Positions 8,917-31,865 of a DNA stretch of 64,000 bases are shown one piece after another. Source of the DNA: Candidatus Parcubacteria bacterium (GTDB lineage: Bacteria > Patescibacteriota > Minisyncoccia > Phycocordibacterales > UBA918); NCBI GenBank assembly GCA_046050355.1, contig JBJOPW010000004.1:13755-77754 (forward strand), in the 5' to 3' direction. Below the pieces are notes generated by a model that saw nothing but the letters and a program-made list of their open reading frames with translations, did no database searches and was not told the DNA's origin. The translations under genes and the position numbers were made by a program. Each line of letters opens with the position of its first letter. The first letter of the stretch is position 1.

Positions 8917-9070
8917 GCCTAACTGGGGAACTTCGCCCAAGCAGAAGTTCCACTGTCTAGGGCAGGATGCGGCACGACCGTATTCTGAGCCTGGACCGTT
9001 CCTTATCAGAGCTATGCCGCAAGGCCTGCTCACTAGGCATGTGTCCTTTCCCAGAAACGTGGAGATACCC

Positions 9071-12810: not shown

Positions 12811-12821
12811 ACTCGATCAGG

Positions 12822-14684: not shown

Positions 14685-14700
14685 GGTCTTCTTCTTGAAT

Positions 14701-15465
14701 TTAGTTGCTAAAGTTCAGGCGAGCTTCGAGCTTGAGTATAGCATCTTTTCGTTCCCTGATCATGCTGTTCAGGGTGATCTTGCTTCCCATCTGGTGCTCG
14801 CGATTCAGCGTGGTCCGGAGCTCAGCAATCTCGCGTTCCAGTTTGTGAATCTCCCCGAGAATGACAGTGTGTTCCTTGGATGCCGAGATCGAGGCCGAAA
14901 CGAACGTCCCGGTCCTGTCCGAGGTGATCAGCCCGATGACCTGGCTCTGGAATGCTTCATAGAGGGCATAAAAGTTGGTGGCGGGAAGCCGGTGAAGCTG
15001 AATGGCCTCCAGGAAGGCCGCCTGTGATGTCGAAGGCTTGTTCGGATCGATCCATTCGGTCTGCCAACGATCCACCAACACGAGCTTGGACTTGTCGGCC
15101 TGGTTGATCCGCTTTTCCGCAACACTGATGGCGATCTTGCCCGCGTGCTCGAACGCCAGGATCAGCGGATATGGAATGGCCCGGTGCATGAAGGCTGCGA
15201 CGCGATTGAGGCGAGCAGGATTCGACAGCTCGACCGAAAGGACGGCGATCTCCAGGTATTCTCGCTCGCTGTCCTGGAAGGGTGCGATGTTGATGGTGTC
15301 GGGCTTGAGCGTGTATTGCCAGCGGATGCGCCCGACATCCTCGCTCAGCGCCTTCCTGTCGGTCTGGTCTAGCTCTGCGTGATCGAGGAACATCTTCTTG
15401 TAGACCGGCTTGTCGAGCAAGCAGGCTTCAGGGATGCCAAGGCTGGAGAGGAAGGCGTCGATCAT
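14701..15465 (-). CDS. DUF4391 family protein
   Basis: HRAIPYP, KRINQAD, C-terminal coiled coil; between SNF2 helicase and mod. Confidence 0.8.
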   Translation of the reverse strand: MIDAFLSSLGIPEACLLDKPVYKKMFLDHAELDQTDRKALSEDVGRIRWQYTLKPDTINIAPFQDSEREYLEIAVLSVELSNPARLNRVAAFMHRAIPYPLILAFEHAGKIAISVAEKRINQADKSKLVLVDRWQTEWIDPNKPSTSQAAFLEAIQLHRLPATNFYALYEAFQSQVIGLITSDRTGTFVSASISASKEHTVILGEIHKLEREIAELRTTLNREHQMGSKITLNSMIRERKDAILKLEARLNFSN

Positions 15466-18400
15466 GCTGCGGCTTGGATAACGAGGAAGCTCACAACCTC
15501 AAAATCGTCTCCGCCCTTGAGGTGATCTTTGGTGAGCGCCGTACCGCCACGGGAAAAGAGGCTCTCGACGCCCTTTTCTTCAGTCTTGCCGACGACGCTC
15601 TCTATGGCGCGATCCAGCAGCTCTCGATAGGCGCTCATATCGCGCCCGTTCTTGGTTTTGGTGTTAAGGGCGTCGATGCTGGCGCGGTCTAGCTCAGTCG
15701 CAGACGCGGCGAGCTTCTTGTATACGTCCAGGCTCTTTTTGGCCTGAAGGTGATTGAACACGATGGTGCCCGCCTCGGAGACATAGATGAGGTAGAATGG
15801 CGTGAGCGCGTAGCTGTCTTCGTTCTGCACCTTACCCTTAAGGTCGCGCAGGCAGAAGATCACGCCTGGCACGGCTTGGTCAATGTTGGGCGACACAACC
15901 GCGTGAAAGCCGGTTGGTGAGCCTTCCAGGCGCTTCAGGTTTTCCTTCATGAAGCTGGACAAATCCATGCGGAAGTCGTTCAGCGTCATGTCGGTGATGG
16001 AGACGCTGCCATCCATGTCCTCAAGATCGATGACGGCATCTTGGAGCTGCTGCATTTGTTTGCGACGGTATTCCAGATCGTTCATCTGCTTGTTTTCGTC
16101 ATATTCGATGACGTTCTCTTCGCCGGTCGCGGAGATGTCCAAGAGCACCATGCGACCGCTCACGCGGGCTTCGAGGTTGATATACTCGTCGAGCTGCATG
16201 TTAGGCCAGAAATTGGTGAGCTGGATCGCGGCGTTCTTCGATCCTAAGCGGTCCACGCGCCCGAAGCGCTGGATGATCCGCACCGGGTTCCAGTGGATGT
16301 CGTAATTGACTAGCATGTCGCAGTCCTGAAGGTTCTGGCCTTCCGAAATGCAGTCCGTGGCGATCAGGATGTCGATGTCAGTCGTGGCATCGGGGTCGAT
16401 CTTGTCGCGCTCTTTTGAAACCGGCGAAAAATTAGTCAGGATGCTGTTGAGGTCGCGCGGCAAGCCGTCGATGGTGCAGCGGTTGGTTCCACTACCCGTC
16501 ACGAGCGCGCTGTGGAGGCCAAATTCCTTCAGCGCCCAGGTGTGTATGTGCTTGAAAAGATATTCAGCCGTGTCGGAGAAGGCGGTGAAAACGATGACCT
16601 TGTTGTTGCCAGGGTTGATCGGCGTTTTGAGCTTGGCGGCAATGGTGTCCTTCAGCTTTTGGAGCTTGGCATCGTCCGCAGCCGCAATCTTCCGCGCCTC
16701 GTCGAGCAGGTAGCCTAAAAGGATGTGATCGGCTTCGAGGTCCTGACGCATCCGGATGAGGTCCAGGTCCTGGATCAGCACCTTGACCTTTCGGCCAATC
16801 ATAAGGTCTTCGAGTTCGGGAGAATCTGCCTCGATGTCCTCGATGAGCAATTCCTCGATTTCCGTAGCCTCATGAGCATCGATCTTCGCGAGGAAGTTGC
16901 CGACCTGAGCATGAATCTTCTCGACGGTGAGAGCGAAGGAATGGATCGAGCTCTCCATCCGCTTAAGCATGTTGACGCGCATGAGGTGGATCAGGCTGCG
17001 CTCCCGGTCCACCTGCTTGAGCGTCGATTTCCCACCTTTGACTTGTTGGTCGTACTTGCGGCTGTAATCGTCCTGCTTGTCGGCGCGCACATAATCCAGG
17101 GGCGCGTAGGCCGCCAGAGAAAGCTTCTTGATTGAGCGGTTGATGTCCTTGAGCGGCGGGAACCGGCCATCCTTGTCGATGTCCGACTTCACATTCTGCG
17201 GCTTCAGACGCTCGGGGAATTTCCCGATTTCCGCAGTGTCGTAATACTTCTCGATATGCCGCCGCGACCGCGCGATGGTAAGCAGGTCGAGTAGCTTGAA
17301 ATAGCCGAAGTTAAGGCTTTCGAGCAGCCCTTCGGTGGTGCGGCTTTCAGCCGGTAGCTTCAGCCAGGTGTTGAACTGCGTCTGCGCGCGACGGAGTGTA
17401 ACTTCTATGCTTTGAATGCCCGCATCGGCTAGCGCTTTGTCCTGCCCTTCGGTGATGAAGGCGACCTGGTTCTTCAGGTCATTCAGGCGATTGTTCACCG
17501 GGGTGGCGGAGAGCATCAGGACTTTGGTTTTGACGCCTTTCCGGATTACCTCGTCCATCAGCCGCTGGTAGCGAGTGATCTTGTCTTTGCTCGGGTTGTT
17601 GTTTCGGAAATTGTGGGACTCGTCGATGACGATGAGGTCGTAGTTGCCCCAGTTGATCGTCTCCAGGTTAATCTCACCGGAGCGACCCGTCTCGCGGCTC
17701 AAGTCTGTGTGGTTCAGGACATCAAAGTTGAAGCGATCAGCCGCAAGCAAGTTGCGCTTGTCGTTGATCGTGTAGACAGTCCAGTTTTCTCGGAGCTTCT
17801 TGGGCGCGAGCACCAGAACGCGGTCATTGCGCAGTTCGTAGTATTTTATGACGGCCAGCGCCTCGAACGTCTTACCCAAACCGACGCTGTCGGCGATGAT
17901 GCAACCGTTGTAACGCTCAAGCTTGTCGATAGCGCCGAGAACGCCGTCTTTCTGGAACTTGTAGAGCTTGTTCCAAACTAACGTGTCCTTAAAGCCAGTC
18001 TTCGACCGTATGATGCTTTCCTCATCGATTTCCTCGATGAAGTCCCTGAAGATATTGAACAGGGTGATGAAGTAGAGAAGGTTCGCAGGCTTATCGGAGG
18101 CGAGGAAATCAAGGCTTTCAAGCACCGCATCCTTTGCATTGCGAACGGCAGTTGGATCATTCCAGATTGTCTCGAACCAGTTGAGCAACTGCTTCGTTGC
18201 CTCCGGGTCTTTCGCCACGGTGTTCATCGCAAAGCTGTTGGATCGCACAACGCCAAGACCAGCGGCTGTAAAGTCCGAAGTGCCAGCGACGGCAACCACT
18301 TCACCAAGGGGTGGTTGAATGTGAAAAATATTCTGCGCGATAGGCGCTCCTGCGAGCTGTCGGACCTGAGCCTTCTTTCGAACCCATTCCGCACACTCGG

Positions 18401-18653
18401 CGGCGATGCGCTGGAGGTTCAGCTCATTCTTCAGGCCAATCTCTTCAGTGGTCCCGGCTAGAGGCAGCGGGAGAGCGGCATCAGGTCGCGCCAAGAGAAT
18501 GCGCAAGTCCTGAACCTTGTTGAGCTCTGACTTCAGGGCGGAATAACCAAAAACGGAAAACCAGGCGGTCAAAACCAACATTTTCGAGTCTGGGCTCAAG
18601 GCCGCTCGAAGTTCGTCTACGACCTTGCCGTGGACCTTGTTATCTAGAAGCAT
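15462..18653 (-). CDS. SNF2-family helicase with N-terminal PLD-like domain
   Basis: ADSVGLGKT, DESHNFRN, SATP, SEGQNLQD, QRFGRVDR; start placed at MLLDNK (alternatives upstream). Confidence 0.9.
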   Translation of the reverse strand: MLLDNKVHGKVVDELRAALSPDSKMLVLTAWFSVFGYSALKSELNKVQDLRILLARPDAALPLPLAGTTEEIGLKNELNLQRIAAECAEWVRKKAQVRQLAGAPIAQNIFHIQPPLGEVVAVAGTSDFTAAGLGVVRSNSFAMNTVAKDPEATKQLLNWFETIWNDPTAVRNAKDAVLESLDFLASDKPANLLYFITLFNIFRDFIEEIDEESIIRSKTGFKDTLVWNKLYKFQKDGVLGAIDKLERYNGCIIADSVGLGKTFEALAVIKYYELRNDRVLVLAPKKLRENWTVYTINDKRNLLAADRFNFDVLNHTDLSRETGRSGEINLETINWGNYDLIVIDESHNFRNNNPSKDKITRYQRLMDEVIRKGVKTKVLMLSATPVNNRLNDLKNQVAFITEGQDKALADAGIQSIEVTLRRAQTQFNTWLKLPAESRTTEGLLESLNFGYFKLLDLLTIARSRRHIEKYYDTAEIGKFPERLKPQNVKSDIDKDGRFPPLKDINRSIKKLSLAAYAPLDYVRADKQDDYSRKYDQQVKGGKSTLKQVDRERSLIHLMRVNMLKRMESSIHSFALTVEKIHAQVGNFLAKIDAHEATEIEELLIEDIEADSPELEDLMIGRKVKVLIQDLDLIRMRQDLEADHILLGYLLDEARKIAAADDAKLQKLKDTIAAKLKTPINPGNNKVIVFTAFSDTAEYLFKHIHTWALKEFGLHSALVTGSGTNRCTIDGLPRDLNSILTNFSPVSKERDKIDPDATTDIDILIATDCISEGQNLQDCDMLVNYDIHWNPVRIIQRFGRVDRLGSKNAAIQLTNFWPNMQLDEYINLEARVSGRMVLLDISATGEENVIEYDENKQMNDLEYRRKQMQQLQDAVIDLEDMDGSVSITDMTLNDFRMDLSSFMKENLKRLEGSPTGFHAVVSPNIDQAVPGVIFCLRDLKGKVQNEDSYALTPFYLIYVSEAGTIVFNHLQAKKSLDVYKKLAASATELDRASIDALNTKTKNGRDMSAYRELLDRAIESVVGKTEEKGVESLFSRGGTALTKDHLKGGDDFEVVSFLVIQAAA

Positions 18654-18819
18654 GTGGACTTTTGCCTTGCCTGAAGAGTCGTCGTATGTGGTTGATTTTT
18701 TATGGGAATCCATGCCTTTTCTAGTCTCATTATCATTCCACAGATCGAGACTACAAGCAAAGGTTGGGTGACCGGATTCTGCAGACCCGGCCACCCGCGC
18801 TCCCACAAGGGGAGGGTCG

Positions 18820-19589: not shown

Positions 19590-19833
19590 AGGTGGTCTAG
19601 AAGGTGGACCGGATTCTCAGCGCTCTACAAAAGCTATATTTTTCAGTGCATTGGAAAATTTAGTGGTGCCCAGAGCCGGAATGGGATTGCCGGAACATTC
19701 CAACACATAGCCTTGCATTTTCAATTTCTTAGACCAAGTCGCGGCTCCAAGGGCAACACATCGCCGAACATCGCTGAACATACAATCACAACCCTTGAGG
19801 TGGACTAAAAGGTGGACTAGAAAAGGTGGACTG
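19590..19833. other. attP-like site of the tyrosine integrase (arm - tRNA 3' core - arm)
   Basis: AGGTGGWC arm repeats at 19590, 19602, 19798, 19810, 19824; core 19664-19682 is the reverse complement of ATTCCGGCTCTGGGCACCA, a tRNA 3' end with CCA; ACATCGCYGA tandem repeats at ~19758-19777. Confidence 0.75.
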
Positions 19834-19845
19834 CGGGAGGATTCG

Positions 19846-21006
19846 ATGGTTCTCTTGAACAGCCTGAACCCACTGAAAGCAAAGAACCTAGTCGCAGGAA
19901 AGCACGCTGACGGCCAAGGACTTTGGCTAGTGAAGAGTGAGCGCACTCGGGGAAAGTGGGTTCTCCGCGTTGTCGTCCAAGGAAAGCGTCGGGAAATGGG
20001 TTTGGGCCGGTGGCCTGACGTCTCCATTGCTGAAGCGCGTGAGTTGGCCGCGGAGGCGCGGAGGAAGCTCCGGACAGGCATCGATCCGATAGCTCAACGT
20101 GTTGAAGGCCGGAAGAAAGTCGTACGCCTAACGGTACAACAAGCAGTGGACGCGTGCTTCGAGGCACGAAAAGCAGAACTCAAGAGCGACGGCGAGGCGG
20201 GTCGCTGGATGTCTCCGCTCTCAGTCCACGTGCTGCCGGTGATTGGAAAGACTGCGATAGAGGACGTCGATCAACATGTGCTGAAGAAAGCTTTGGAGCC
20301 CATCTGGCACTCAAAGGCCGACACAGCTCGAAAAGCTCTAAACCGCCTCAGCTTGACCCTAAAGCATGCGGCTGCACTTGGACTGGAAGTAGACCTCCAG
20401 GCAACGATGAAGGTCCGGGCTCTCCTAGGCAAACAAAGGCACGTGTCCGAACACATTCCTTCGATGCCATACAAAGACGCACCGGCCTTCTATCGCTGGC
20501 TCTCCGAACAGACCTCGGCGGCAGCCCTACCGCTTCGCTTCCTCATTTTGACAGCTGCCCGAACTGGAGAGGTGCGCTATGCTCGGCATAGCTACATTGA
20601 GGACAAAGTTCTTACACTCCCTCCCGAGATCACAAAGACCGGGCGTGAACACAAAATTCCGCTTACATCGGAAGCCGCAGCAGTGATCAACGCTGCGAAG
20701 CTGCAAGACAGCCAGGACCTGTTGTTCCCTTCCCCAACCGGAAAGACCTTCTCTGATGCGACAATGTCACGATTAATGCAGCGTGAAGGCCTAGTTTATA
20801 GGCCCCATGGCTTCAGGGCCACATTCCGGACGTGGGTCGAAGAACAAACTGACACTCCTCTCGAAGTGGCTGAGGCCGCACTCGGGCACGTCGTAGAGGG
20901 ACAGGTCATCCGGGCCTACCAACGATCTGATCGACTTGAGAAACGACGATCCTTGCTAGTCAAATGGAGCAAGTATCTGCAAGACACAGGACACCCCAAC
21001 CCATAG
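19846..21006 (+). CDS. P4-like tyrosine integrase with arm-binding domain
   Basis: GGAGG RBS; HADGQGLWL, REMGLG, R(TGE), HGFR, LGH, catalytic Tyr in RAYQR. Confidence 0.95.
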   Translation: MVLLNSLNPLKAKNLVAGKHADGQGLWLVKSERTRGKWVLRVVVQGKRREMGLGRWPDVSIAEARELAAEARRKLRTGIDPIAQRVEGRKKVVRLTVQQAVDACFEARKAELKSDGEAGRWMSPLSVHVLPVIGKTAIEDVDQHVLKKALEPIWHSKADTARKALNRLSLTLKHAAALGLEVDLQATMKVRALLGKQRHVSEHIPSMPYKDAPAFYRWLSEQTSAAALPLRFLILTAARTGEVRYARHSYIEDKVLTLPPEITKTGREHKIPLTSEAAAVINAAKLQDSQDLLFPSPTGKTFSDATMSRLMQREGLVYRPHGFRATFRTWVEEQTDTPLEVAEAALGHVVEGQVIRAYQRSDRLEKRRSLLVKWSKYLQDTGHPNP

Positions 21007-21988: not shown

Positions 21989-23317
21989 ATGCGCATCGCA
22001 ATGGTTTACCCAGAAGTCTTCGACCTTGCACGGTTCAATGAAAAGCGGAAAGAGTTTCCGCCTTTTGGGGTAATGTACCTATCCGCCATGATGGAGCAGG
22101 CAGGGCACGTTGTCCAAGTATTTGCCATATCCTTCGAAACGAGTGCGATCGATTTCCGAGGCTTCGATGCAGTAGGATACTCCATCCCATCATCAGCAAC
22201 TTTTGGTATAACAAAGAAGGTACGGTTTGCTAGTAAGTACGACGAGGGGGCACTGATCATGGCTGGTGGAGTACACGCAAACCTTTACCCACTGCAGACT
22301 CTGGATGAATTGGAACCGGACGTTGTTGGCATTGGTGAGTGCGAACAGACCATACTCGACATCTTGGAGAGGGGTAAGAATGCGGATTTTGGTAACATCC
22401 TCGGAGTCGCCTTTAAGAAGAACGGGGAAGCAGTGAAGACACCTCCTCGTCGAGTAGATAAAGACATTGACTGGCTTCCACTTCCATCCCGACACCTCCT
22501 GCCTCGGTCAGACATTGTGATGAGCAATCGACTATCTAACACGGACATCGAAATGGCCCACGTCATGTTCACACGTGGATGCCCGTTTCCGTGCAGGTTC
22601 TGTGCAGTTGCGCAAACTAAGATACAGTATCGCTCAGGCGCCAGCGCAAGACGTGAAATAGTTCACCTAATGGAAACTTATGGAATAGGTGGTTTCGCCA
22701 TTGTCGATGACAATTTCATCGTTGACAAGCGTAAGGTTCATGACGTAGCCGAAAGCATCCAAGACCTCGGTGTAAAATGGTCGGCTCTTTCCCGAGTCGA
22801 CACCATTGACAAAGAACTGCTCACGGCAATGGCCTCATCCGGATGCATCGAAATTAAGTTTGGAATGGAGTCAGGGAGTCAGAGAATTCTTGATGCAATG
22901 CAGAAAAACACGACCCCGGAACAGATCCTAGAGGCCGCAAGGCTTTCATATGAAGCCGGCATCAAGGCCAAGTTCTTTATTGTTCATGGTTATCCTGGTG
23001 AAAACATGGAGACCACAGCCGAGACAATCGCCCTCCTTGATAGAGCTAAAAGATATGTAGATCGAGTTTCGCTCTTCAGGTTTGCCCCATTGCCGGGGAC
23101 ATATGTCTACAATCACCCTGAAGAGTTCGGCCTCCGGGGAACGGACCGGCAAGCAGACTGGGATGGCAACTGGGATAAATATCATATTTATCACAATGCG
23201 TACCACTGGTGGGGAACGGATGATCAATTTGAAGAGCTGAACAGGGCGCACACGGAGATCTCCAACTATATTGACGAAACTTGGCCAGCGACTTTTCAAC
23301 CGCCCCAAAATGTGTAA
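21989..23317 (+). CDS. B12-binding radical SAM enzyme
   Basis: GGAGG RBS; PPFGVMYL, AGGVHA (cobalamin domain); RGCPFPCRFC; DDNF; GMESGSQRIL; GYPGE. Confidence 0.92.
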   Translation: MRIAMVYPEVFDLARFNEKRKEFPPFGVMYLSAMMEQAGHVVQVFAISFETSAIDFRGFDAVGYSIPSSATFGITKKVRFASKYDEGALIMAGGVHANLYPLQTLDELEPDVVGIGECEQTILDILERGKNADFGNILGVAFKKNGEAVKTPPRRVDKDIDWLPLPSRHLLPRSDIVMSNRLSNTDIEMAHVMFTRGCPFPCRFCAVAQTKIQYRSGASARREIVHLMETYGIGGFAIVDDNFIVDKRKVHDVAESIQDLGVKWSALSRVDTIDKELLTAMASSGCIEIKFGMESGSQRILDAMQKNTTPEQILEAARLSYEAGIKAKFFIVHGYPGENMETTAETIALLDRAKRYVDRVSLFRFAPLPGTYVYNHPEEFGLRGTDRQADWDGNWDKYHIYHNAYHWWGTDDQFEELNRAHTEISNYIDETWPATFQPPQNV

Positions 23318-23327
23318 AACTTAGAGA

Positions 23328-24074
23328 ATGGAGAGGATTGGAACTGTAGAAGCGGTGTTCCTACGCAAGGCACATGGCCGTGCTGTTGAGGAATCAACAG
23401 TCCTCAACTTAGTGGCTGATTTCGGGATCGTAGGGGATATCAACTTCTCGGCTTCGTCGCCTCGCCATTTGCTACTTAAGAGGATTGGACGTCCAGGCGA
23501 TTGGACGGACAACGCCGGTTACTTCAATGAAAACGTTTCTTTCACTTCTGAAAGTCTGAATTCGCTTCGTCCGGGAGACATCGTAAGAGTTGGCTCCGCA
23601 ACTCTCCTCGTTCGTTCAAAAAATGAGCGGTGCAACATTTTTGCGCCAGAGGTCCGCGTGGCACGAGGCCTTCATTGTGTTTGCATAGACGCCGGATCCA
23701 TTCGTCGTTCGGATGACATCATAAAGCTCGGTAGCGTTTCTATCGCAGAGGACAGTCGCGCGGCACTATTGGTAACGGGCCTCAGGGCTGTTCCGCTCGG
23801 AAGAGTGGTGACTTTTGAAGATGCATGCACTATGATTGGTGGCAGCCGCCCACACTTGCGGATCATTCCAAGACTGCTAAAGATTGCAATTACTTTGCAT
23901 CCAACTGGGGTTCCATTTCACAGGTTAGTCAAATCTAAGGGTGATCTAATTGACAACATTGTCACTGATCAGATGCTCCTCCTGGCGGCGGAAGGTATAT
24001 CGACTTCAAACGGAAGAACTGTAAATCTTCAGTTCCGTCATGTTTTCGGGAGAAACCCATTTTGCGAAATGTAA
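23328..24074 (+). CDS. MOSC domain fused to an alkyltransferase-like (ATL/MGMT-fold) domain
   Basis: GIVGD, ENV, LRPGDIVRVG, GSIRRSD (MOSC); VPLGRVVTF...PFHRLV...LAAEGI (ATL, no catalytic Cys). Confidence 0.7.
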   Translation: MERIGTVEAVFLRKAHGRAVEESTVLNLVADFGIVGDINFSASSPRHLLLKRIGRPGDWTDNAGYFNENVSFTSESLNSLRPGDIVRVGSATLLVRSKNERCNIFAPEVRVARGLHCVCIDAGSIRRSDDIIKLGSVSIAEDSRAALLVTGLRAVPLGRVVTFEDACTMIGGSRPHLRIIPRLLKIAITLHPTGVPFHRLVKSKGDLIDNIVTDQMLLLAAEGISTSNGRTVNLQFRHVFGRNPFCEM

Positions 24075-24478
24075 GCTGCTTTGTCTCGATGGCAATTGAA
24101 GCTCGTGAAGCACTTAGTGAAGAGCTCTCCGCAATTAAGAGTGTGTGCAGTAGATTTGGTGTTAGAGCCCATGTCTTCCTAGATGAATACTCATTTGAGA
24201 AAGGCAAAGAATCCCAAATGATGGCGGAGGTCGTTTCGTGTATTAATGGCTGTGATTTCTTGATTGCTGAAGTAAGCAAGAAGGCGATTGGGGTGGGGTG
24301 TGAGGTTGGCATCGCTGCAGCATTGGGAAAGCCGGTGATCTATTGTCGGCAGGCAGGGAGTCCAGCTTCGCTGACGGTTGGCGGACTGGCAAGTTTTACT
24401 CTGACTTATAGTGAAGCCAACGAACTTGCGCGGAAACTAAGTTTCGTATTAGAGAACAGGTTCTTCGAGTCCGACTAG
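24062..24478 (+). CDS. nucleoside 2-deoxyribosyltransferase/N-glycosidase fold protein
   Basis: CDFLIAEVS..IGVGCEVGIAAALGKPVI; overlaps the upstream stop. Confidence 0.85.
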   Translation: MRNVSCFVSMAIEAREALSEELSAIKSVCSRFGVRAHVFLDEYSFEKGKESQMMAEVVSCINGCDFLIAEVSKKAIGVGCEVGIAAALGKPVIYCRQAGSPASLTVGGLASFTLTYSEANELARKLSFVLENRFFESD

Positions 24479-24603: not shown

Positions 24604-24909
24604 TTTTGGAAGTTTCGGAGCCTTCCTCGTTGCTCCGGCTCATTGTTTAACTTGATGACGGTCGCCGTCACGGGTCAGTGTGTTGATCGTACAGGATCCA
24701 TGAGTGGGGTTTCGAAGCGGTCCCTGCATACCTTGGAGTTCCGGGTAGCTCGGGTGGAGGATAGTGATATTCGAGGCGCTCTCCCGTGTGGAGTGCTCGC
24801 CAATGACAGTTTGGTCGCGCATGCTGTCAGGCGCAGGACGCTAGAAGACCCTCATTGACAACTCATGGTATAGTATCTATGTCTTACTAGCTAAATGTAG
24901 AGGTAAACC

Positions 24910-25152
24910 ATGTCCGAGAAATACAAATTCAAAGTTGAGAATGAAACCTACGAGTGGGGCGATGCAACCATCACCGCAGCGGAAGTACGCGGGGTCGGTC
25001 CAGGGATTCCTGATAGCATGGATCTCTTTGTGAAGCTTCCCGGAAAGCCTGCGCGCTTAGTGTCGGATCCAGGCGAAGTCTTTGATCTCTCGAAGCCGGG
25101 AATCGAGAAATTCTTTGCGCAGAACTCATCGTCGGAAGCGGGCGCCAACTAA
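24910..25152 (+). CDS. ubiquitin-like protein (multi-ubiquitin-type beta-grasp, single domain)
   Basis: YKFKVE..YEW...IT...FDLSKPGIEKF; ends EAG-AN, consistent with a pro-form Gly tail. Confidence 0.8.
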   Translation: MSEKYKFKVENETYEWGDATITAAEVRGVGPGIPDSMDLFVKLPGKPARLVSDPGEVFDLSKPGIEKFFAQNSSSEAGAN

Positions 25153-25154
25153 TT

Positions 25155-25562
25155 ATGCCGTTATTGTTCGAAGATGACTACGAGTACTTGAAAAGTACTG
25201 GGCTAAAGTACGATGAGTACACGGACCAGCGCTTCTTGGTGGTCAGGGCTTACCCCGTTCCGGAGGGTAAGTACATCTTCGAAGGACAACCGGTTCGGAC
25301 GGTCGATGTCCTGTCCATTATCCCGCCAAACTACAACACCGAAGGCTGCGACATGTTCTGGGTGCACCCAGCGATATCGCGTGCTGATGGAAAGCCCATT
25401 CCGGCAACTGGCGGCGACGACAGAGTCTTCGACAACACGACCTTCGTTCGTTGGTCCAGGCACTGGCCTGCCGGTCGATGGAGACCCAAGGTTGATACAA
25501 TAGAGACCATATTGAGCCGTATCGACTGGGCCTTGCATAACCCAGACCCTGCTGAAGCATGA
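25155..25562 (+). CDS. prokaryotic E2 (family E) conjugating enzyme
   Basis: YPVPEG, IPPNY, DMFWVHP, RWSRH, WRP..DTIET. Confidence 0.85.
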   Translation: MPLLFEDDYEYLKSTGLKYDEYTDQRFLVVRAYPVPEGKYIFEGQPVRTVDVLSIIPPNYNTEGCDMFWVHPAISRADGKPIPATGGDDRVFDNTTFVRWSRHWPAGRWRPKVDTIETILSRIDWALHNPDPAEA

Positions 25563-27010
25563 GCCAACCCCGCATCACCCTCCTGCAATCACATCGAGAG
25601 CGCTTGGAGCGTTGGTTACCGTCTCATCCAGAGCATCACGAACGTGCCGCTGTAGTACTGTTCCGCTCGTTTGCACGAGAGGTACTGGAACAGACTCAAT
25701 CAGAACGGCTCGTCTCGGTCGACGTGATCGAAATGACTGATGACTGGCTCGTGGAGAGCTCAGTCATCAGTGTCAAAGTCAACCTTCGAAAGCTTGTGGA
25801 TCTGTATTTCCGCTGTGAGCAGGAGGGCTTACACTTAGGCTTCGTACATAGTCACCCACTTGGTGCTGACGCCTTCTCGGGTCAGGACGATCAGAACGAA
25901 CAAAACATCTTGCGGGGCTACGCTGGCTGCAATGGACGAGACTCAAGATTGGTGGCTCTTGTCTACGTCGACGGCGAGTGGATTGGTCGGGTGCGTTATG
26001 CGACCAAGCCAACCGAGAGCTCGCCTGTTCGTCACATACTTACACTGGGGGAAACCCTTGCTGTACACCATTTGACCAACCCGGAGGGTGATCTGGCTAC
26101 ACTGGAGCGACAGGCGGCCGCTTTCGGTCGACCATTTAATCAAAAGCTTCAGTCTCTTAGAGTTGCAGTGGTTGGGTGCGGAGGTACCGGCTCACCAACT
26201 GCTACCCTTCTGGCTCGCGCAGGTGTCGGCGAACTTATTCTCATTGATGGTGACAACCTAGAGGAAAGCAATCTCAACCGGGTTCGAGGCTTGCGGAGAG
26301 ATGATGTCGGACACAACAAGGCAGAGAGGCTGTGTTCGTACATCCGCTCCTTATCCCTGCCAACATCCGTGTCGTTTGTCCCCAATTATCTTGAGGACAA
26401 TCGGGCAGCTGTCGACGCACTTTCCTCAGCCGATGTCGTATTCGGCTGCACCGACACCGTGGCAAGTCGAGAACTCTTAAACGAGGCTCTGTACTATTAT
26501 GGGTTTGTGCTCATTGATTGCGGACTGTCGGGAGAAGTTGCCAGCACTGCTGATGGGAAACCAAGGCTCATTGAGCATCGCGGTCGCGTAAGCACCGTGC
26601 AGCCCGAAACTGGAGCTTGCCTGCGCTGCCAAGGGGTCGTCACAGACAACAAACTGAGATACGAGAGAGCGGTCAACGAGAACCCAGAGCTCAAGAAGCT
26701 CGACGCCAAAACGCTGCTCCGCGAACATTATCTAGTTGGCGGAGGCGAAGCCGCTCCGGGGGTCGGACCGTTCACTAGCGCAACTGCCGATCTTGCTGTC
26801 TCCTCACTATTTGAACTCATTCATCCATACAGACAACTGGGCGGCGATTTCCGTCCTGACAATATTTGGCAAGATTACTTGCATATGACTTATCACAGTA
26901 ACGAGCCCCGAAACCTTTCTGCCGATTGTTATTGCTGTGGCACGCGCGCGATCCTACTGAAGCGTGAGCGTCAAGTTCTACTGGACAGACCGGCACTTGG
27001 TACGATTTGA
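25559..27010 (+). CDS. JAB peptidase - ThiF/E1 fusion
   Basis: E...HSHP...FSGQD (JAB); GCGGTG, DGDNLEESNLNR, GCTD, CLRC (E1). Confidence 0.9.
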   Translation: MSQPRITLLQSHRERLERWLPSHPEHHERAAVVLFRSFAREVLEQTQSERLVSVDVIEMTDDWLVESSVISVKVNLRKLVDLYFRCEQEGLHLGFVHSHPLGADAFSGQDDQNEQNILRGYAGCNGRDSRLVALVYVDGEWIGRVRYATKPTESSPVRHILTLGETLAVHHLTNPEGDLATLERQAAAFGRPFNQKLQSLRVAVVGCGGTGSPTATLLARAGVGELILIDGDNLEESNLNRVRGLRRDDVGHNKAERLCSYIRSLSLPTSVSFVPNYLEDNRAAVDALSSADVVFGCTDTVASRELLNEALYYYGFVLIDCGLSGEVASTADGKPRLIEHRGRVSTVQPETGACLRCQGVVTDNKLRYERAVNENPELKKLDAKTLLREHYLVGGGEAAPGVGPFTSATADLAVSSLFELIHPYRQLGGDFRPDNIWQDYLHMTYHSNEPRNLSADCYCCGTRAILLKRERQVLLDRPALGTI

Positions 27011-27011
27011 T

Positions 27012-27446
27012 ATGAATCTAGGCATTCCCAAGATATTTCTAAACTTCTGGAAGAAAGCACGGCTTCCAGAAATCCAAGAACCTACCAATCATGTGAGGCA
27101 CTATCAAGCTGCCCTGATCTTGGAAAGAACACCAAGCAACTCGGCAATCGGAGATCGCGATTTTGTATTCGTGATCTATGAGACCGTTCCACGGTGGGCA
27201 CTGTTTCGATGCCCCTGCGGCTGTAGCGAAGTCATCAGCCTACCCCTAGCTGCTCCACACAATCCTCGATGGGCCGTCTATGTCGACGAGGATGGCTTCG
27301 CTTCTCTGTATCCATCCGTTTGGCGCAACACTGGCTGCATGAGTCACTTTGTAATTCGCTCAGGATGTGTATTCTGGGCGAATAAGAGCGGGGTCAGCCC
27401 ATTTGAAGCCAGCCCAAATTTCTATAAGCCTCGCATTCCCAAGTAG
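27012..27446 (+). CDS. DUF6527 family Cys/His metal-binding protein
   Basis: CPCGC, SLYPSVW..GCMSHF. Confidence 0.85.
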   Translation: MNLGIPKIFLNFWKKARLPEIQEPTNHVRHYQAALILERTPSNSAIGDRDFVFVIYETVPRWALFRCPCGCSEVISLPLAAPHNPRWAVYVDEDGFASLYPSVWRNTGCMSHFVIRSGCVFWANKSGVSPFEASPNFYKPRIPK

Positions 27447-27460
27447 AAGGGACGTGAGCT

Positions 27461-28882
27461 CTAGTATTCCCAGCGAACAAAATAGCCAGACCGTCCATAG
27501 CAGTCGTATCCGCGCTTGTCCTTATGTGCCTTGAGCATTGTCCCGGAGCTCTTCCTCTTGAACTCTTTTCCGCAGTAGGTACATGCGATCACCTGAAGGG
27601 GTCCACCAGAGTAGGTTGAAGGCCTGCGATTCACTCGACCCGCCGAACTTCCTCCTCGCTTTGTCTGGGCACCAAGCCGACCGCCTCCTCCAAAGTAGGA
27701 ATTTTCTGGCAGCTCACCTGCTTTTGACAGTTCGACCTCGAAGCGCGGTTCGAACTTTTCTTCAAGTATCTGTGGCTTCTCAACTTTTGGATTAACCAGG
27801 GACTTGATTCCGGTTGACCCTGAGGCACCTCCAGTTCGATCCCACACATAGAAGTATTCGCGCGGAGACCCGTCCGATGGACGTTTGTAGCTTAGAGCGT
27901 AAGGTTCGACGACCCTCTCGTATCCGTCATAGGTTAGTCGGATAAGCCGTTGTTGAGACCCGGCTTCCAAGAAGACGTTACGAAGTTCTGCCGGAAAGAA
28001 GGCATCGCTTATGCGATCTGCCATACCGCTCGTTTCGAATACACTATCGACGAACCGCGTGTACGCTTCTGTCGCGGTGTCGAAGTCTATTTTGCTTGCT
28101 GCCGGGCAAACTATGTATTTCTCCCATGCCGCCCGGAAGAAGGCCATGGGGAGACCAAGGAGTATTTGCCGAGCTGAACCCGGACTTCGTTCAAAGATGG
28201 TCTTCTTGAGAAAGACGCTTGCAATTGTTGATCGATCAAGGTCAATCCGATCATCAAAGAACGCAGCGTAAACTAGATCGTAGAGATCATGGGAGTGACG
28301 ACGTTGCAGCAAGCATTTGAGCTTAGATGCCATGCCCTCTTCGAGAGCAACACATCTAAGATTTACTCTGCAGACATCTGAATCCGAATATGGATGAATA
28401 AGTGGAACCGTGCTCACTGGAAGATACAAGCGGTCGAACTCTGTCACATCCATCCGAACTGAAATTTCCAGCGCGCTTTTCTGGCCATAGAAATCTTCGA
28501 AGAAGACCTTTCCCTTGTAGATTTTTCTGTCGGTGTTTTTGCCGAGATTGGCCCGTGCGGCTTCTTTGAAAGAGCTTCTCTCACTTACAAACTTGATACC
28601 CGATACAGCTTGAGCCATCTTGCAGCTACGTTCAATTTGAGCAGTCAGTTCATCCAAGTCAACTGCACGTTCAGTTGAGAAATCCAGGTCAGAGGAGAAC
28701 CTGGTGTTCGGAAAGTACGCTTTTCGGAAGCAGTTTCCGCCCTTTAGGATGAGAAGGTCACTGAGATACTCATTTTGGTATATTGCAAACAGGAGCCAGC
28801 CGAAGACGTAGTCACGCTGAACATTCGAGGTATTGATCTCGAATTCAGCAGATTTCTGGTCGATTTCATCTCTCTCGATCAT
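27461..28882 (-). CDS. AbiEii-type nucleotidyltransferase fused to WYL domain and C-terminal Zn finger
   Basis: LKGG..RFSSDLDFS, K..RR..HDLYDL; LTYDGYERVVEPYAL (WYL); CTYC..H..C. Confidence 0.85.
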   Translation of the reverse strand: MIERDEIDQKSAEFEINTSNVQRDYVFGWLLFAIYQNEYLSDLLILKGGNCFRKAYFPNTRFSSDLDFSTERAVDLDELTAQIERSCKMAQAVSGIKFVSERSSFKEAARANLGKNTDRKIYKGKVFFEDFYGQKSALEISVRMDVTEFDRLYLPVSTVPLIHPYSDSDVCRVNLRCVALEEGMASKLKCLLQRRHSHDLYDLVYAAFFDDRIDLDRSTIASVFLKKTIFERSPGSARQILLGLPMAFFRAAWEKYIVCPAASKIDFDTATEAYTRFVDSVFETSGMADRISDAFFPAELRNVFLEAGSQQRLIRLTYDGYERVVEPYALSYKRPSDGSPREYFYVWDRTGGASGSTGIKSLVNPKVEKPQILEEKFEPRFEVELSKAGELPENSYFGGGGRLGAQTKRGGSSAGRVNRRPSTYSGGPLQVIACTYCGKEFKRKSSGTMLKAHKDKRGYDCYGRSGYFVRWEY

Positions 28883-29106
28883 GTGACTACTCTACACCAA
28901 ATCCCAAGCTACGGCACCTTAAGGCGATGATGACGGTTTGGCCAAGGAACACAACCCGTATGGCACCTCTATGCTGCATCTGCTGTGTCTTGAGGCTTTT
29001 GATACTTCAAATTGTACTGCCACTGCGGGATCTTATTTGGAGTACACGCTGGTCTTTTAGGACAGAAGGTTAGAAGGTGGCTCAGGGACGTCTTCATCTC
29101 CTTTAG

Positions 29107-29150
29107 AGTTCGAGAAGTGTTCCGATGTGGGTCACACTGGCGGCAAAACC
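29107..29150. repeat. right hybrid attachment site (element arm, core 29127-29135, host arm)
   Basis: Core GTGGGTCAC at the point where pyrE-like sequence ends. Confidence 0.8.
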
Positions 29151-29438
29151 GGTGGCGGCAGTGGGGATGCCGATGATGATGGGTTGACGCCTTTCATCAT
29201 CGGACAAAATGTCGCAGATGCGTTTGCCGATGAATCGTCCGCACCGCTCAGTCAGGGATGGGTTGTCGGTCAGGTCGCCACGACCATTGAAGTAGATGTG
29301 GCTCGCTACACCGCTTTTCAGTGTGAACGGATCTTCTGTCCACACCAACATTCCATATTTGACCATTTCACGGATCAGGTCGATCTCCTCGTTTTCGAAG
29401 CGACGACCTGCACCGAATGGTGAAGTAAGTTCTGGCAA
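29127..29438 (-). pseudogene. pyrE: 5' part of an orotate phosphoribosyltransferase-like gene interrupted by the element
   Basis: FTLKSGVASHIYFN and IIGIPTAA; the PRPP-binding motif is missing; frame continues as YDPRTF in bases 18-1. Confidence 0.7.
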
Positions 29439-29577
29439 AGTACTAATCCTTCCTGTTTGGGCCACTCCATCACGTATGGTGTGGCGGTTTGGCGATGGGG
29501 GTAGAGTACGCTTTGGCAAGTAAAAATGCAAGTACAGCAAAGAAAATGAGTAATCTCATGCTACTATTTACATATAC

Positions 29578-30717
29578 ATGAAAGCGCCTGAAGTAAGTAC
29601 AATGAATGAGGCTCGCGCGGCTCATGCGGAGTTCACTTTGCAACGTGCCGCTTTTTCATTTTTTCAAGAAAATATAGAACTGTGTTCCAAACCACCTCGT
29701 GATGTAATGCCAGAGATTATTGCAGAGTTGCCAGAGTCGCCCAAATTACTCTCGAAACAAGAGATGGATCTATGGCTCAAAGAGAATACCTCAATGAGCG
29801 GTCAGCGGTTACATATGGACGTCGGGGCGCCATCAAAATTGGAATCCTATATTTTGTTTTTACTCATGACAACCAGTCCAAAAAGTACACAATTTGAAAC
29901 AACGGATATAGAAACTACAGGTGACAGATTTTCATTAGTTGATAGTATACAAATTTTGCGTGATGAGGTACGAACTAAGCGTTTCCTGATGGGTATCAAA
30001 GAGGCAGTTGCAAACCTTCTTACAACCAAAGATAATATACTTGTTTGCGATGCCGGTTGCGGAGCGATTCCTATTTTAGGTATACAAGCAGCATTGCAAT
30101 CGCCAAATGTGCAGGTTGTTTGTATTGAGAGCAATCCCGAATCGGTTATTATGGCGCGTGAATGTATTAATGCGTTTAATCTTGGTAATCAAGTGTTGGT
30201 TATAGAAGGAGACGCACGTGAATATAAGCCAAAGAGAGAAATTGATCTTGTTATTTCTGAGACAATGGATATTGGCTTACTTAATGAGCCAATGTGTGAC
30301 ATTATGTCGAGTTTAAAACCTTTCACATCAAATGATAGCATTTTCATTCCAGAACAAGTAGAAGTATTGGCAACAGCATTAACAGCGTCTGATTATGATA
30401 GTGCTGATAGTTACGCCCTTATTGATAAGGATTGTTGGCCAGTTATTCAAACAAAGTGGCAAGTTATCGGTAGCTACAAAGCAGGTGATTTGAGTCCGTA
30501 TTTTGAAAGTGATATTTCGGTACCGCAGAATAATGAAGCAAAAATTCCACTAATAAGTTCAAGGGTAAAAATTCATGATTCAGTGCCAACTCTCGATTTT
30601 TGCGAAAGCCGCCTTACAGCATTTTTGCCTTTGCCTGGAAGCCTCCAGTCGCGTGATAGTAAACTACATATTTCGTATCGAGCGGGTGATTCGATCAAAG
30701 AAGTACAAATAGCATGA
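29578..30717 (+). CDS. class I SAM-dependent methyltransferase (PRMT-like core)
   Basis: DEVRT, DAGCG, IESNP, GDAR, DLVISET...LLNE, FIP. Confidence 0.8.
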   Translation: MKAPEVSTMNEARAAHAEFTLQRAAFSFFQENIELCSKPPRDVMPEIIAELPESPKLLSKQEMDLWLKENTSMSGQRLHMDVGAPSKLESYILFLLMTTSPKSTQFETTDIETTGDRFSLVDSIQILRDEVRTKRFLMGIKEAVANLLTTKDNILVCDAGCGAIPILGIQAALQSPNVQVVCIESNPESVIMARECINAFNLGNQVLVIEGDAREYKPKREIDLVISETMDIGLLNEPMCDIMSSLKPFTSNDSIFIPEQVEVLATALTASDYDSADSYALIDKDCWPVIQTKWQVIGSYKAGDLSPYFESDISVPQNNEAKIPLISSRVKIHDSVPTLDFCESRLTAFLPLPGSLQSRDSKLHISYRAGDSIKEVQIA

Positions 30718-30745
30718 CCAGCATAAATGTATACATAGCAATGTT

Positions 30746-31363
30746 ATGCAATACGGCGTAGATGTGGCGAGCACCCGGCTTGATGATCTCGATAAACGAG
30801 TGTTGGCAGATGTGCGTGAACGTATCGGTCGTGTGGAGGAGGTGTCAGTGCTTGATGTTGGGTGCGGGCAGGGTGGCTTGGCGCTGGTACTGACTCAAGC
30901 TGGAGCCATTGTTACTGCACTTGATATTCCTGACTACAGTTCGGCCTTTCAAAATGAGACTGCTGCGACAATTGAATTTGTTCAGGCAGATGTCCGTGAG
31001 TGGATACAAAATAATACTGTTCAGTTTGATATGGTCGTGCTGCAACGCGTACTCCATTATCTACCGAATCATGAAGCTAAGAAGCTTCTGAGAGCACTGC
31101 GAGATGTGACCGCTACACTCTATCTGTCAGTGACCGGCACGACGACTGCCATCGCGAGTCACTATGACAAAGTCCACGAGCTAATCGAGAGGCGGTGGGG
31201 TGTACTTGATACAGTGGGGCAGGAATTATTTTCTATCACTGCACCGGTGTGTCTCTATAGTAAGGAGGAGTTACTTGAGCTCCTCAAGGACTGTGGGTGG
31301 GAGGTAGTGTGGTCGCGAGTGTCTGATTTTGGGAATATTAAGGTGGTGGCTCGAGGGAGTTAA
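30746..31363 (+). CDS. class I SAM-dependent methyltransferase
   Basis: VLDVGCGQG, FDMV, VLHYL. Confidence 0.9.
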   Translation: MQYGVDVASTRLDDLDKRVLADVRERIGRVEEVSVLDVGCGQGGLALVLTQAGAIVTALDIPDYSSAFQNETAATIEFVQADVREWIQNNTVQFDMVVLQRVLHYLPNHEAKKLLRALRDVTATLYLSVTGTTTAIASHYDKVHELIERRWGVLDTVGQELFSITAPVCLYSKEELLELLKDCGWEVVWSRVSDFGNIKVVARGS

Positions 31364-31412: not shown

Positions 31413-31591
31413 GTGCCGGAGATAGGACTTGGTCACAGATAATTTCTTGCAGAAATTTCCGCGACCCCGCCTCATAGTCGCAGAGCGACATATTCCGGCT
31501 TTCAAGTCCCTCACGAAAGTAAAGCAGTTTGCTTTCTCTCCGGCTCATTAAAATCAAAATGCGCCATAAAGCGCATTAAGATTTTATATTG
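31413..31591 (-). repeat. structured echo of the tRNA-Leu 3' end
   Basis: Antisense GCCGGAG and GAGGGACTTGAA, AAATTT/AAATTATC hairpin, direct copy CAAGTCCTATCTCCGGCAC. Confidence 0.75.
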
Positions 31592-31672
31592 TGCCGGAGG
31601 AGGGACTTGAACCCTCACACCTTGCGATAATGGGTTTTGAATCCATCGCGTCTACCATTCCGCCACTCCGGC
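31592..31672 (-). tRNA. tRNA-Leu(CAA)
   Basis: GCCGGAG/CTCCGGC acceptor, anticodon loop TTCAAAA, long variable arm, GTTCAAGTC T-loop; no encoded CCA. Confidence 0.9.
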
Positions 31673-31865
31673 AATATTTCTCTTTCTATACTCGGCAAAT
31701 ATGAGGTATTTCCTCAATCGCTAGAGCATACCAGATAATCCAAAACTTATAAACACCCATGGCCGGGGAAGGGTGTGGTAGAATAGAGGGACGAGCAACC
31801 GCGTTAGAACGGTTTTGGAGGTCATTCTTGCTCGGCTTTTTCCGTGTTAATTAGTATTCTGTCTT

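Follow-up and report, generated by a model that had tools for sequence, protein, structure and literature searches.

A B12-binding radical SAM gene, a MOSC–ATL fusion gene and a DNPH1-like gene as a putative mobile cassette in a Candidatus Parcubacteria genome

The stretch of DNA analysed here (64,000 nucleotides of contig JBJOPW010000004.1 of Candidatus Parcubacteria bacterium, assembly GCA_046050355.1; referred to below as the window) carries three tightly linked genes. They encode a B12-binding radical S-adenosylmethionine (SAM) enzyme (rSAM; gene 1), a fusion of a MOSC domain with an alkyltransferase-like (ATL) domain (gene 2) and a protein of the nucleoside deoxyribosyltransferase (NDT) fold resembling DNPH1/Rcl (gene 3). 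On comparative sequence evidence, the three genes appear to be one horizontally mobile cassette, which is a rare variant of a widespread and undescribed B12 rSAM module. The accessory slots of this module seem to be interchangeable by role: a lesion-reading fold (HTH_42/AlkZ-like in most loci, MOSC–ATL in the window), an enzyme that hydrolyses non-canonical (deoxy)nucleotides (mostly MazG or NUDIX; in the window a DNPH1-like, probable deoxynucleoside monophosphate (dNMP) N-glycosidase) and a dNMP kinase (often thymidylate-kinase-like, absent from the window). That the slots are filled by partners which are not homologous but alike in role strongly indicates joint action of the genes on a non-canonical deoxynucleotide able to reach DNA.

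The genes of the trio are co-directional (Table 1), with a gap of 10 bp between genes 1 and 2 and an overlap of 13 bp between genes 2 and 3; all reading frames and spacings were found as the initial annotation of this DNA had given them. Its domain calls (B12-radical SAM, MOSC-ATL and NDT fold) likewise proved correct for all three proteins by Pfam, family profiles and fold matches. A ribosome-binding site (GGGAGG) precedes the ATG of gene 1, and GGGAGA precedes the TTG start of gene 3. An alternative gene-caller model of gene 3 begins at an ATG at position 24090 (129 aa) and would remove the N-terminal strand; the TTG is preferred as the start codon because four homologues share this strand, which also aligns with DNPH1. 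A spacer of 431 bp separates gene 3 from the start of a ubiquitin-like (Ubl) gene at 24910, and the Ubl operon is therefore regarded as a unit separate from the trio. The yield of a scan for promoters and terminators did not differ from chance (6 where 3.4 were expected, and 4 where 3.0 were).

Failure of the three genes to co-occur elsewhere had been named beforehand as an outcome that would speak against a common system; the trio was in fact found in three further, diverged loci, where the gene order is unchanged and the spacers are likewise short. One is in a metagenome-assembled genome (MAG) of Verrucomicrobiales (L004, from the genome scan described below and tblastn), while L084 and the fragment L085 come from a metagenome scan with a 6-row alignment. 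Identities to the window proteins are 71% for rSAM, 31% for MOSC-ATL and 39% for NDT in L004, and 70%, 35% and 43%, respectively, in L084, giving overall ranges of 68-71% for rSAM, 30-35% for MOSC-ATL and 37-43% for NDT (the last from L004 and L084 only). The flanks are unrelated among the loci: L004 has a coupling protein (T4CP) and RadC, L084 a dGTPase-like HD protein together with a fragment of a methylase, and the window restriction-modification (R-M), Ubl and AbiEii genes, so that the context is mobile or defence-rich in 3/3 loci with flanks. Recurrence of the trio in diverged loci with unrelated flanks indicates that the linkage is more than chance. A divergent upstream gene was considered as a fourth component of the cassette and rejected, as the upstream genes are non-homologous between loci. 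L004 possesses a fourth gene (8514-9041, 175 aa) with faint similarity to P-loop kinases (PDC-M51B, E 0.0027); tblastn identified neither a thymidylate-kinase-like (TMPK) gene nor a P-loop kinase of the L004 type between positions 15001 and 31000 of the window. Among 401 genomes sampled from the phylum of the host (that of the window and 400 others, the unpublished genome G214 among them), a full-length MOSC-ATL was present in one, the genome of the window, and the other 196 matches, among those listed, consisted only of a stand-alone domain of ATL/Ogt size. This restriction within the phylum sample points to acquisition of the gene by transfer.

A genome scan identified 42 loci with an rSAM orthologue of at least 50% identity (L004-L045), along with 38 loci possessing distant (~30%) paralogues in Bacteroidota and Ignavibacteria. 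The orthogroup is tight (50-71% identity) across several phyla, and the cassette was found in many Actinomycetota. Neighbours in the 42 loci were surveyed by clustering, Pfam naming of representatives and tblastn (E<=1e-4); the resulting counts are lower bounds, since few query proteins were used and four loci (L017, L027, L035 and L043) are shortened by contig ends. An AlkZ-like HTH_42 gene was identified in 39 of the 42 loci, usually directly after the rSAM gene and within tens of bases of it, and MOSC-ATL in one, with two loci having neither reader beside rSAM. MazG-like proteins (24/42), NUDIX (6/42) and NDT (3/42) together place at least one of these hydrolases in 33 loci. TMPK genes are present in 23 loci, lying upstream in 22 and usually overlapping the rSAM start. 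Pfam confirmed the naming of representative neighbours as AlkZ-like, MazG, Thymidylate_kin, NUDIX and Nuc_deoxyrib_tr. None of these accessories was found in any of the 38 loci of the distant paralogues. The proposal of the initial annotation that the genes form a modified-nucleoside or nucleotide system thus gains support from the recurrence of the trio and from the linkage of its core to a lesion reader and a nucleotide hydrolase.

In a quick maximum-likelihood tree of rSAM, the orthogroup is one clade (support 100). Within it, the 29 rows of AlkZ type group together (support 89), while those of the trio, three in number, fall outside the clade (support 95) that holds the rest; the type of partner thus appears to be of old standing and to go with the enzyme. 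The AlkZ-like proteins score 80-105 bits with the Pfam AlkZ-like model and match AlkZ (PDB accession no. 5uuj) at E 5e-13. Of the 39 loci with this gene, 37 were readable at the position of Q-A-Q-V in AlkZ, and all 37 possess G-[LIV]-H-[AS]-[AS]-R there. The catalytic motifs of HTH_42 proteins, as given in PMC9040887, are QxD, (Q/H)xQ and Hx(S/T)(D/E). The commonest partner of orthologous rSAM proteins, of which the window has none, is thus of the same HTH_42 family as the AlkZ/YcaQ glycosylases for genotoxin self-resistance, but differs in that the catalytic motif is replaced by H-[AS]-[AS]-R (37/37). This H-A-A-R branch of HTH_42 is a different one and possibly not of glycosylases; its members may bind DNA without catalysis or with catalysis of another kind. 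The surroundings of the AlkZ-type loci vary widely (115 open reading frames (ORFs) of at least 200 aa within 4.5 kb, with 109 Pfam families), and the cassette is thus considered autonomous and not visibly part of defence islands or biosynthetic clusters there. An example of the HTH_42 branch with the invariant G-L-H-A-A-R segment lies beside rSAM at 3050-4264 of L013. In a Bdellovibrionales MAG (L010, 2576-9277), rSAM is followed by NDT only and then by genes for an S51 peptidase, a UvrD-like helicase, a nucleoside diphosphate kinase (NDK) and a photolyase.

The sole phage match of rSAM is in the temperate Streptomyces phage SF3 (L119, 4335-6909). Here, a B12-binding radical SAM protein (gp36), a thymidylate kinase (gp37) and a NUDIX hydrolase (gp38) are encoded in a row, followed directly by an integrase on the other strand. 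Identity is 27% between gp36 and the window rSAM, 43% between gp37 and the cassette TMPK (E 7e-43) and 39% between gp38 and the cassette NUDIX (E 1e-28). In PADLOC, the rSAM and TMPK of actinobacteria gave weak matches (52.8 and 45.7 bits, respectively) to both components of PDC-M51, itself a candidate defence system consisting of a radical SAM protein (A) and a thymidylate-kinase-like protein (B). The actinobacterial cassette thus shares the theme of rSAM with TMPK with this system, though its matches are weak and partial. The window rSAM matches PDC-M51A weakly (41.1 bits, residues 186-386 only) and the window lacks a B component, so that it fails the two-component test; no PADLOC model was matched by MOSC-ATL, NDT, AlkZ-like or MazG proteins. 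A literature search on PDC-M51 returned no paper that mentions it. The homology of gp37 and gp38, taken together with the PDC-M51 matches, shows that a B12 rSAM, a dNMP kinase and a nucleotide pyrophosphatase are brought together repeatedly, at three levels of divergence.

Gene 1 possesses a B12-binding domain (PF02310, 43.6 bits against a cut-off of 32.1) that forms the N-terminal Rossmann-like domain (residues 22-123), and a Radical_SAM domain (72.5 bits against a cut-off of 29.5). The cysteines of the CxxxCxxC motif (C198, C202 and C205, within CPFPCRFC) are invariant in 18/18 aligned orthologues. No NCBIfam equivalog matched the protein at its cut-off, the best being ApyD (148.8 bits against 750), and the nearest solved chains are all distant: AprD4 (6fd2, 74.6 bits), 9ccb, TokK, CysS and OxsB (5ul2; E 1.5e-6, 30 bits). 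Some radical SAM members with a cobalamin-binding domain (class B type), AprD4 among them, are not methylases. Viperin models were absent from the PADLOC and NCBIfam matches of this protein, whose domain set is B12-binding plus Radical_SAM. There are more than 1500 relatives of rSAM; the top 120, including proteins of Streptomyces, Nonomuraea and Verrucomicrobiota, share 53-71% identity with it. No orthologue was found on plasmids at E<=1e-40, nor in IMG/VR by a pattern scan. A predicted complex of rSAM with MOSC-ATL scored 0.00, and no inference was drawn from the model.

On its own, gene 2 scores below the Pfam cut-offs for both of its domains (MOSC 18.6 bits, DNA_binding_1 21.7 bits); the assignment rests on its family, as DNA_binding_1 was found in 50/50 and MOSC in 49/50 of the members scanned. 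A HMMER search of 1.84 billion representative proteins gave 107 clusters at E<=1e-3, nearly all of them ~250 aa long and matching from end to end. The AlphaFold2 model of the protein has a pLDDT of 92.5. Foldseek matched its N-terminal half to YiiM (5yhi), YuaD (1oru), 1o65 and mARC1 (6fw2), and its C-terminal half to the ATL proteins of Vibrio (2kif, TMt 0.69) and Schizosaccharomyces pombe (Atl1, 3gx4, TMt 0.69). The N-terminal half therefore combines the beta-barrel fold of MOSC proteins such as YiiM, YuaD and mARC with their conserved cysteine (C102, invariant across the family). The C-terminal half has the DNA-binding fold of the MGMT C-terminal domain and, like ATL proteins (S. pombe Atl1, Vibrio vpAtl and Escherichia coli YbaZ), lacks the alkyl-accepting cysteine: P196-F197-H198-R199 stands in place of P-C-H-R, with H198 and R199 invariant, the cysteine replaced in 50/50 family members and position 197 variable. 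R178, conserved in at least 90% of members, is a candidate for the Arg finger, which we take to be the equivalent of the residue used by ATL proteins for flipping of alkylated guanine. Gene 2 differs from the known ATL and MOSC proteins in that both domains are fused, and its family is annotated merely as 'MGMT family protein'; a literature search for MOSC together with alkyltransferase-like returned no study of such a fusion. In the Atlas, protein clusters with both domains (95 and 117 members) are commonest in Cyanobacteriota. MOSC–ATL genes were also identified on nine cyanobacterial plasmids, where they are annotated as 'MGMT family protein' or hypothetical protein. The plasmids of the three regions read (L116-L118) are large and often conjugative; one MOSC–ATL gene lies directly after parA/parB and another in a strawberry-notch/M48 peptidase neighbourhood. 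One branch of the MOSC–ATL family is considered to have been recruited to the cassette.

Gene 3 matches Pfam Nuc_deoxyrib_tr (PF05014; 35 bits against a cut-off of 28.8). With a profile of five homologues, the chains of Rcl/DNPH1 were found at 1e-9 to 1e-6 (best 2klh, 1.2e-9, and 4fyh, 3.2e-9), against only 0.014 to 0.9 for true deoxyribosyltransferases. The initial annotation of a nucleoside deoxyribosyltransferase was thus right as to the fold, while a base-swapping transferase is not favoured and an N-hydrolase of dNMPs of the DNPH1/Rcl type is the more precise description. The segment AEVS-KKAIGVGCEVG aligns to AEVTQPSLGVGYELG of DNPH1. E70, G77, G79, E81, S103 and G108 are invariant in 5/5 homologues, and E81, in GVGCEVG (G-x-G-x-E-x-G), aligns with the glutamate of GVGYELG in Rcl, the residue that we take to be the nucleophile of NDT and Rcl enzymes. 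In the alignment, S103 lies opposite the serine of L-S-A-M-I-R-G and the N-terminal strand opposite the FCGSIRGG region, in neither case with letter-for-letter conservation; the residues of these two regions may play a role in the preference for 5'-monophosphates. DNPH1/Rcl (2'-deoxynucleoside 5'-phosphate N-hydrolase; hydrolase of hydroxymethyl-dUMP (hmdUMP)) is thus the best solved relative of gene 3, with the motif of the nucleophile region aligned. Mammalian DNPH1 keeps hmdUMP out of the nucleotide pool, and a sanitising role of this kind agrees with the presence of MazG and NUDIX genes in the corresponding place of other loci. Gene 3 differs in being bacterial and cassette-encoded, and its similarity to DNPH1/Rcl is visible only with the profile of five homologues.

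The genome of the host consists of 939,894 bp in 17 contigs, with 42 tRNA genes and a stated completeness of 99.97%. The sampled genomes of its phylum are all listed as small, and we infer that the host belongs to an ultra-small-genome lineage living on salvage. The molybdenum cofactor (Moco) markers MoaC (PF01967) and MoCF_biosynth (PF00994) were not found in this genome, while being present in 11 and 13 of 14 control genomes, respectively; BtuR/CobO was not found in it either. The B12-binding and MOSC domains of the cassette are the only ones it encodes. The absence of the Moco markers and of any other B12-binding domain makes the supply of cofactors doubtful in this host unless they are imported. 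ARAGORN called no tRNA-Asp in the genome.

Taking these findings together, the reading preferred here, with a probability of about 0.4, is that the rSAM makes a non-canonical deoxynucleotide, possibly antiviral, and that the other two genes limit self-damage. The rSAM would convert a (deoxy)nucleotide to a non-canonical antimetabolite, perhaps active against phage replication; the DNPH1-like enzyme would destroy the monophosphate form and so protect the pool of the host, and MOSC–ATL would locate the corresponding base in the DNA of the host and perhaps reverse or flag it. This logic would be analogous to that of viperin with CMPK2 and of OxsB with OxsA. The data show gene structure, domain identities, recurrence, exchange of analogous partners and mobility; the substrate, the product, the direction of the reaction (making versus removing) and any antiviral role are inferred. 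A role of rSAM as the maker is favoured because it is the constant and most conserved component and the kinase is often translationally coupled to it, and also because a temperate phage carries a set beside its integrase and the trio stands amid defence and conjugation genes. The cassette may be described as radical-SAM nucleotide chemistry with kinase and hydrolase helpers, though it may well prove to be of a more distant kind.

Several findings weigh against this reading. If a kinase and a hydrolase both acted on one product, their work would be futile, so the assignment of roles may be wrong. The AlkZ-like partners are without any of the catalytic motifs given in PMC9040887 (37/37), ATL proteins are likewise non-catalytic, and catalytically silent readers fit a DNA-targeting subunit as well as they fit a protective enzyme. 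In all three of the cyanobacterial plasmid regions read, MOSC–ATL stands alone without rSAM, and must therefore have a function of its own. The AlkZ-type flanks show no enrichment in defence or biosynthetic genes, the only recurrent families being HTH_31 (9), IS66 (2) and integrase (2). For the anti-phage role proposed in the initial annotation, the mobile or defence-rich contexts of the trio thus speak in favour but the flanks of the AlkZ-type loci do not, and this part of the proposal stays conjectural. Finally, both cofactors may be unavailable in the host genome, where the cassette may be an idle passenger.

The silent readers bear most directly on an alternative in which the chemistry is directed at DNA: the rSAM would modify a base within DNA (by C-methylation or some other radical reaction) or repair it directly, the readers would bind the DNA and present the base, and the hydrolases would clear the modified nucleotides released. 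Both types of reader are lesion-recognition folds without the canonical catalytic residue (the cysteine replaced in 50/50; QxQ changed to H-[AS]-[AS]-R in 37/37), the reader gene is the most constant neighbour of rSAM (39+1 of 42) and lies within tens of bases of it, and the type of partner tracks the rSAM tree. Such a mechanism is nonetheless judged unlikely, as the cassette has no conserved nuclease or restriction gene at its side, while the dNMP kinase in 23/42 loci and the reader-less set of phage SF3 point to chemistry at the level of nucleotides; the MOSC domain also keeps its conserved cysteine, so that the fusion may itself be catalytic. Another alternative is a system of sanitation or salvage, in which all genes, including rSAM, would clear or recycle a foreign or damaged base, originating in phage DNA, salvaged DNA or a genotoxin, in the pool as well as in DNA, and nothing is produced. 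Every accessory family has house-cleaning members: MazG, NUDIX and DNPH1 are known house-cleaning nucleotide hydrolases, and the MOSC proteins YiiM and YcbX detoxify N-hydroxylated bases. AlkZ/YcaQ and ATL act on alkylated DNA, according to PMC9040887 and PMC10779285. The genes for the UvrD-like helicase, NDK and photolyase that follow rSAM and NDT in L010 are consistent with this explanation, as is the very small genome of the host with its presumed life on salvaged nucleotides. It is weakened by the fact that the only constant and most conserved component is a B12 radical SAM enzyme; we know of no such enzyme that acts as a cleaner of the nucleotide pool. A dNMP kinase would moreover push a bad nucleotide toward DNA, and the patchy distribution, mobile carriage and temperate phage copy fit an accessory rather than a housekeeping function; sanitation is therefore given a low probability.

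Production of a compound for export has been considered as well. The cassette would then be a small gene cluster that makes a nucleoside antibiotic or genotoxin for secretion, and the AlkZ-like or ATL protein its self-resistance gene. AlkZ-like proteins are enriched in genotoxin gene clusters according to PMC9040887, and OxsB, a B12 radical SAM enzyme, is among the weak PDB matches of the window rSAM. With only two to four genes in variable contexts, with no transporter, tailoring enzyme or other biosynthetic gene conserved in the AlkZ-type flanks and with partners that lack the catalytic motifs of glycosylases, this explanation is highly improbable. Whatever its function elsewhere, the cassette could be an inactive passenger of its island in the present host. 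The two Moco markers searched are absent here though most of the controls were positive, BtuR/CobO is missing, and the 0.94-Mb genome has no other B12-binding or MOSC domain; against this, the three reading frames are intact and the family-invariant residues are kept, the cofactors could come from a host cell or the environment, and two or three marker families do not prove the loss of a pathway. An inactive cassette is, on balance, regarded as improbable.

Among known systems, the logic of the cassette appears most like that of viperin with CMPK2 and of OxsB with OxsA, and it is a member of neither family. In viperin and prokaryotic viperins, a radical SAM enzyme is paired with a kinase of the thymidylate kinase family (CMPK2), the substrate is a nucleotide and the product antiviral. 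This pairing is shared by the orthologous rSAM loci (TMPK in 23/42) and phage SF3, but the cassette enzyme differs in being a 442-aa radical SAM protein with a B12-binding domain outside the viperin family, and the trio of the window has no kinase. To our knowledge, lesion readers and hydrolases are not part of viperin systems. OxsB and OxsA are a B12 radical SAM enzyme and a phosphohydrolase that act on 2'-deoxyadenosine phosphates to give oxetanocin, an antiviral nucleoside analogue. The cassette shares this combination of B12 radical SAM enzyme and hydrolase, while the sequence relation is only distant, its hydrolases are DNPH1-like, MazG or NUDIX in place of HD, and it has a lesion reader where OxsB/OxsA has none.

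The statement of the initial annotation that the combination is not recognisable as a named system holds. A PADLOC check, which that annotation had called for, matched no system beyond the weak hit to PDC-M51A, and searches of the literature (supplements excluded) that paired radical SAM with AlkZ/YcaQ, thymidylate kinase, MazG, NUDIX, phage or cobalamin returned nothing relevant. The supplementary tables of PMC9040887 on Streptomyces HTH_42 proteins lie outside the scope of these searches and may include or exclude the H-A-A-R group. The survey thus defines a cassette in Actinomycetota, and in a Streptomyces phage, that matches no PADLOC 2.0 system and no paper in these searches. If the product is a deoxynucleotide analogue, the cassette would represent a second radical-SAM route to antiviral or antimetabolite nucleotides, unrelated to viperin and with resistance genes already at hand, and could yield new nucleoside chemistry; an enzyme acting on DNA would stand for a novel way of modifying or repairing DNA bases. 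In both cases, a testable function is suggested for MOSC–ATL fusions, for the motif-less HTH_42 branch and for bacterial DNPH1-like proteins. A bolder proposal, against which the odds are considerable, would be that of a new B12 radical-SAM nucleic-acid chemistry dispersed by gene transfer through at least seven bacterial phyla and with a related phage set. It would yield an unknown C-modified or rearranged deoxynucleotide (for immunity or competition), or involve the first radical SAM enzyme to write a DNA base, with silent lesion readers; in both cases the sanitisers would block re-use.

The initial annotation had placed the trio between a type III R-M locus and a ubiquitination-like locus. 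Both do flank it, but a tyrosine integrase and an ORF of no assigned family intervene upstream. The res and mod genes of the type III system belong to a minus-strand block of four genes (9817-18806) that also encodes DUF4391 and a 1114-aa helicase of the SNF2 type. A promoter region of near-consensus TTGACA/TATAGT type lies at ~24855-24885, ahead of the Ubl operon. The features of the region are listed in Table 1.

Table 1. Coordinates of the trio and of neighbouring features in the window
Feature	Position	Strand	Remarks
Type III R-M res	9817-12810	-	Upstream of trio
Type III R-M mod	12822-14684	-	Upstream of trio
Tyrosine integrase	19795..21006	+	Pfam Arm-DNA-bind_3, Phage_int_M, Phage_integrase; upstream, outside cassette
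Gene 1, B12-binding radical SAM (rSAM) enzyme	21989..23317	+	442 aa, intact ORF; conserved core of cassette
Gene 2, MOSC–ATL fusion	23328..24074	+	248 aa, intact ORF
Gene 3, DNPH1/Rcl-like NDT-fold protein	24062..24478	+	138 aa, TTG start; probable (modified) dNMP N-glycosidase
Ubl-like (80 aa), Prok-E2_E, JAB-ThiF (E1) fusion, DUF6527 operon	24910-27446		Downstream; bacterial ubiquitination-like set
AbiEii-type nucleotidyltransferase	within 27461-31363		473 aa, possible C-terminal zinc finger
Small ORF of no assigned family	29103-29540		After AbiEii-type gene
PRMT5/TRM5-like methyltransferase, then second SAM methyltransferase	within 27461-31363		Just before tRNA-Leu
tRNA-Leu(CAA)	31591..31672	-	ARAGORN

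The tRNA-Leu gene is probably the right border of the island that bears the cassette. In metagenome run X2, one Logan contig covers the window from ~16275 (computed from the record offset) to 31479 and ends there; this run may be the source sample, so that its contig break is not independent support. Many alternative loose ends of contigs were found at 31413-31676 in three metagenome runs, which suggests strain-level variation of what is integrated at tRNA-Leu. The contig break and the loose ends at this gene therefore make it the likely right border of a strain-variable island. Runs X1 and X3 gave no cover over 21.5-31.3 kb with ~86% of those runs read, and this gap is not interpreted. No att-like direct repeats of the end of tRNA-Leu were found, which leaves the left border of the island without a sequence marker. 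Genes for a serine recombinase, coupling-protein-like ATPases and a relaxase are present further left in the window, while the genes rightward of 31.8 kb are of housekeeping type (ParB, a RelA/SpoT homologue, topoisomerase I, SerRS, Dus and DnaX). The contig that bears the island has a GC content of 51%, and the other contigs of the genome have 45-50%.

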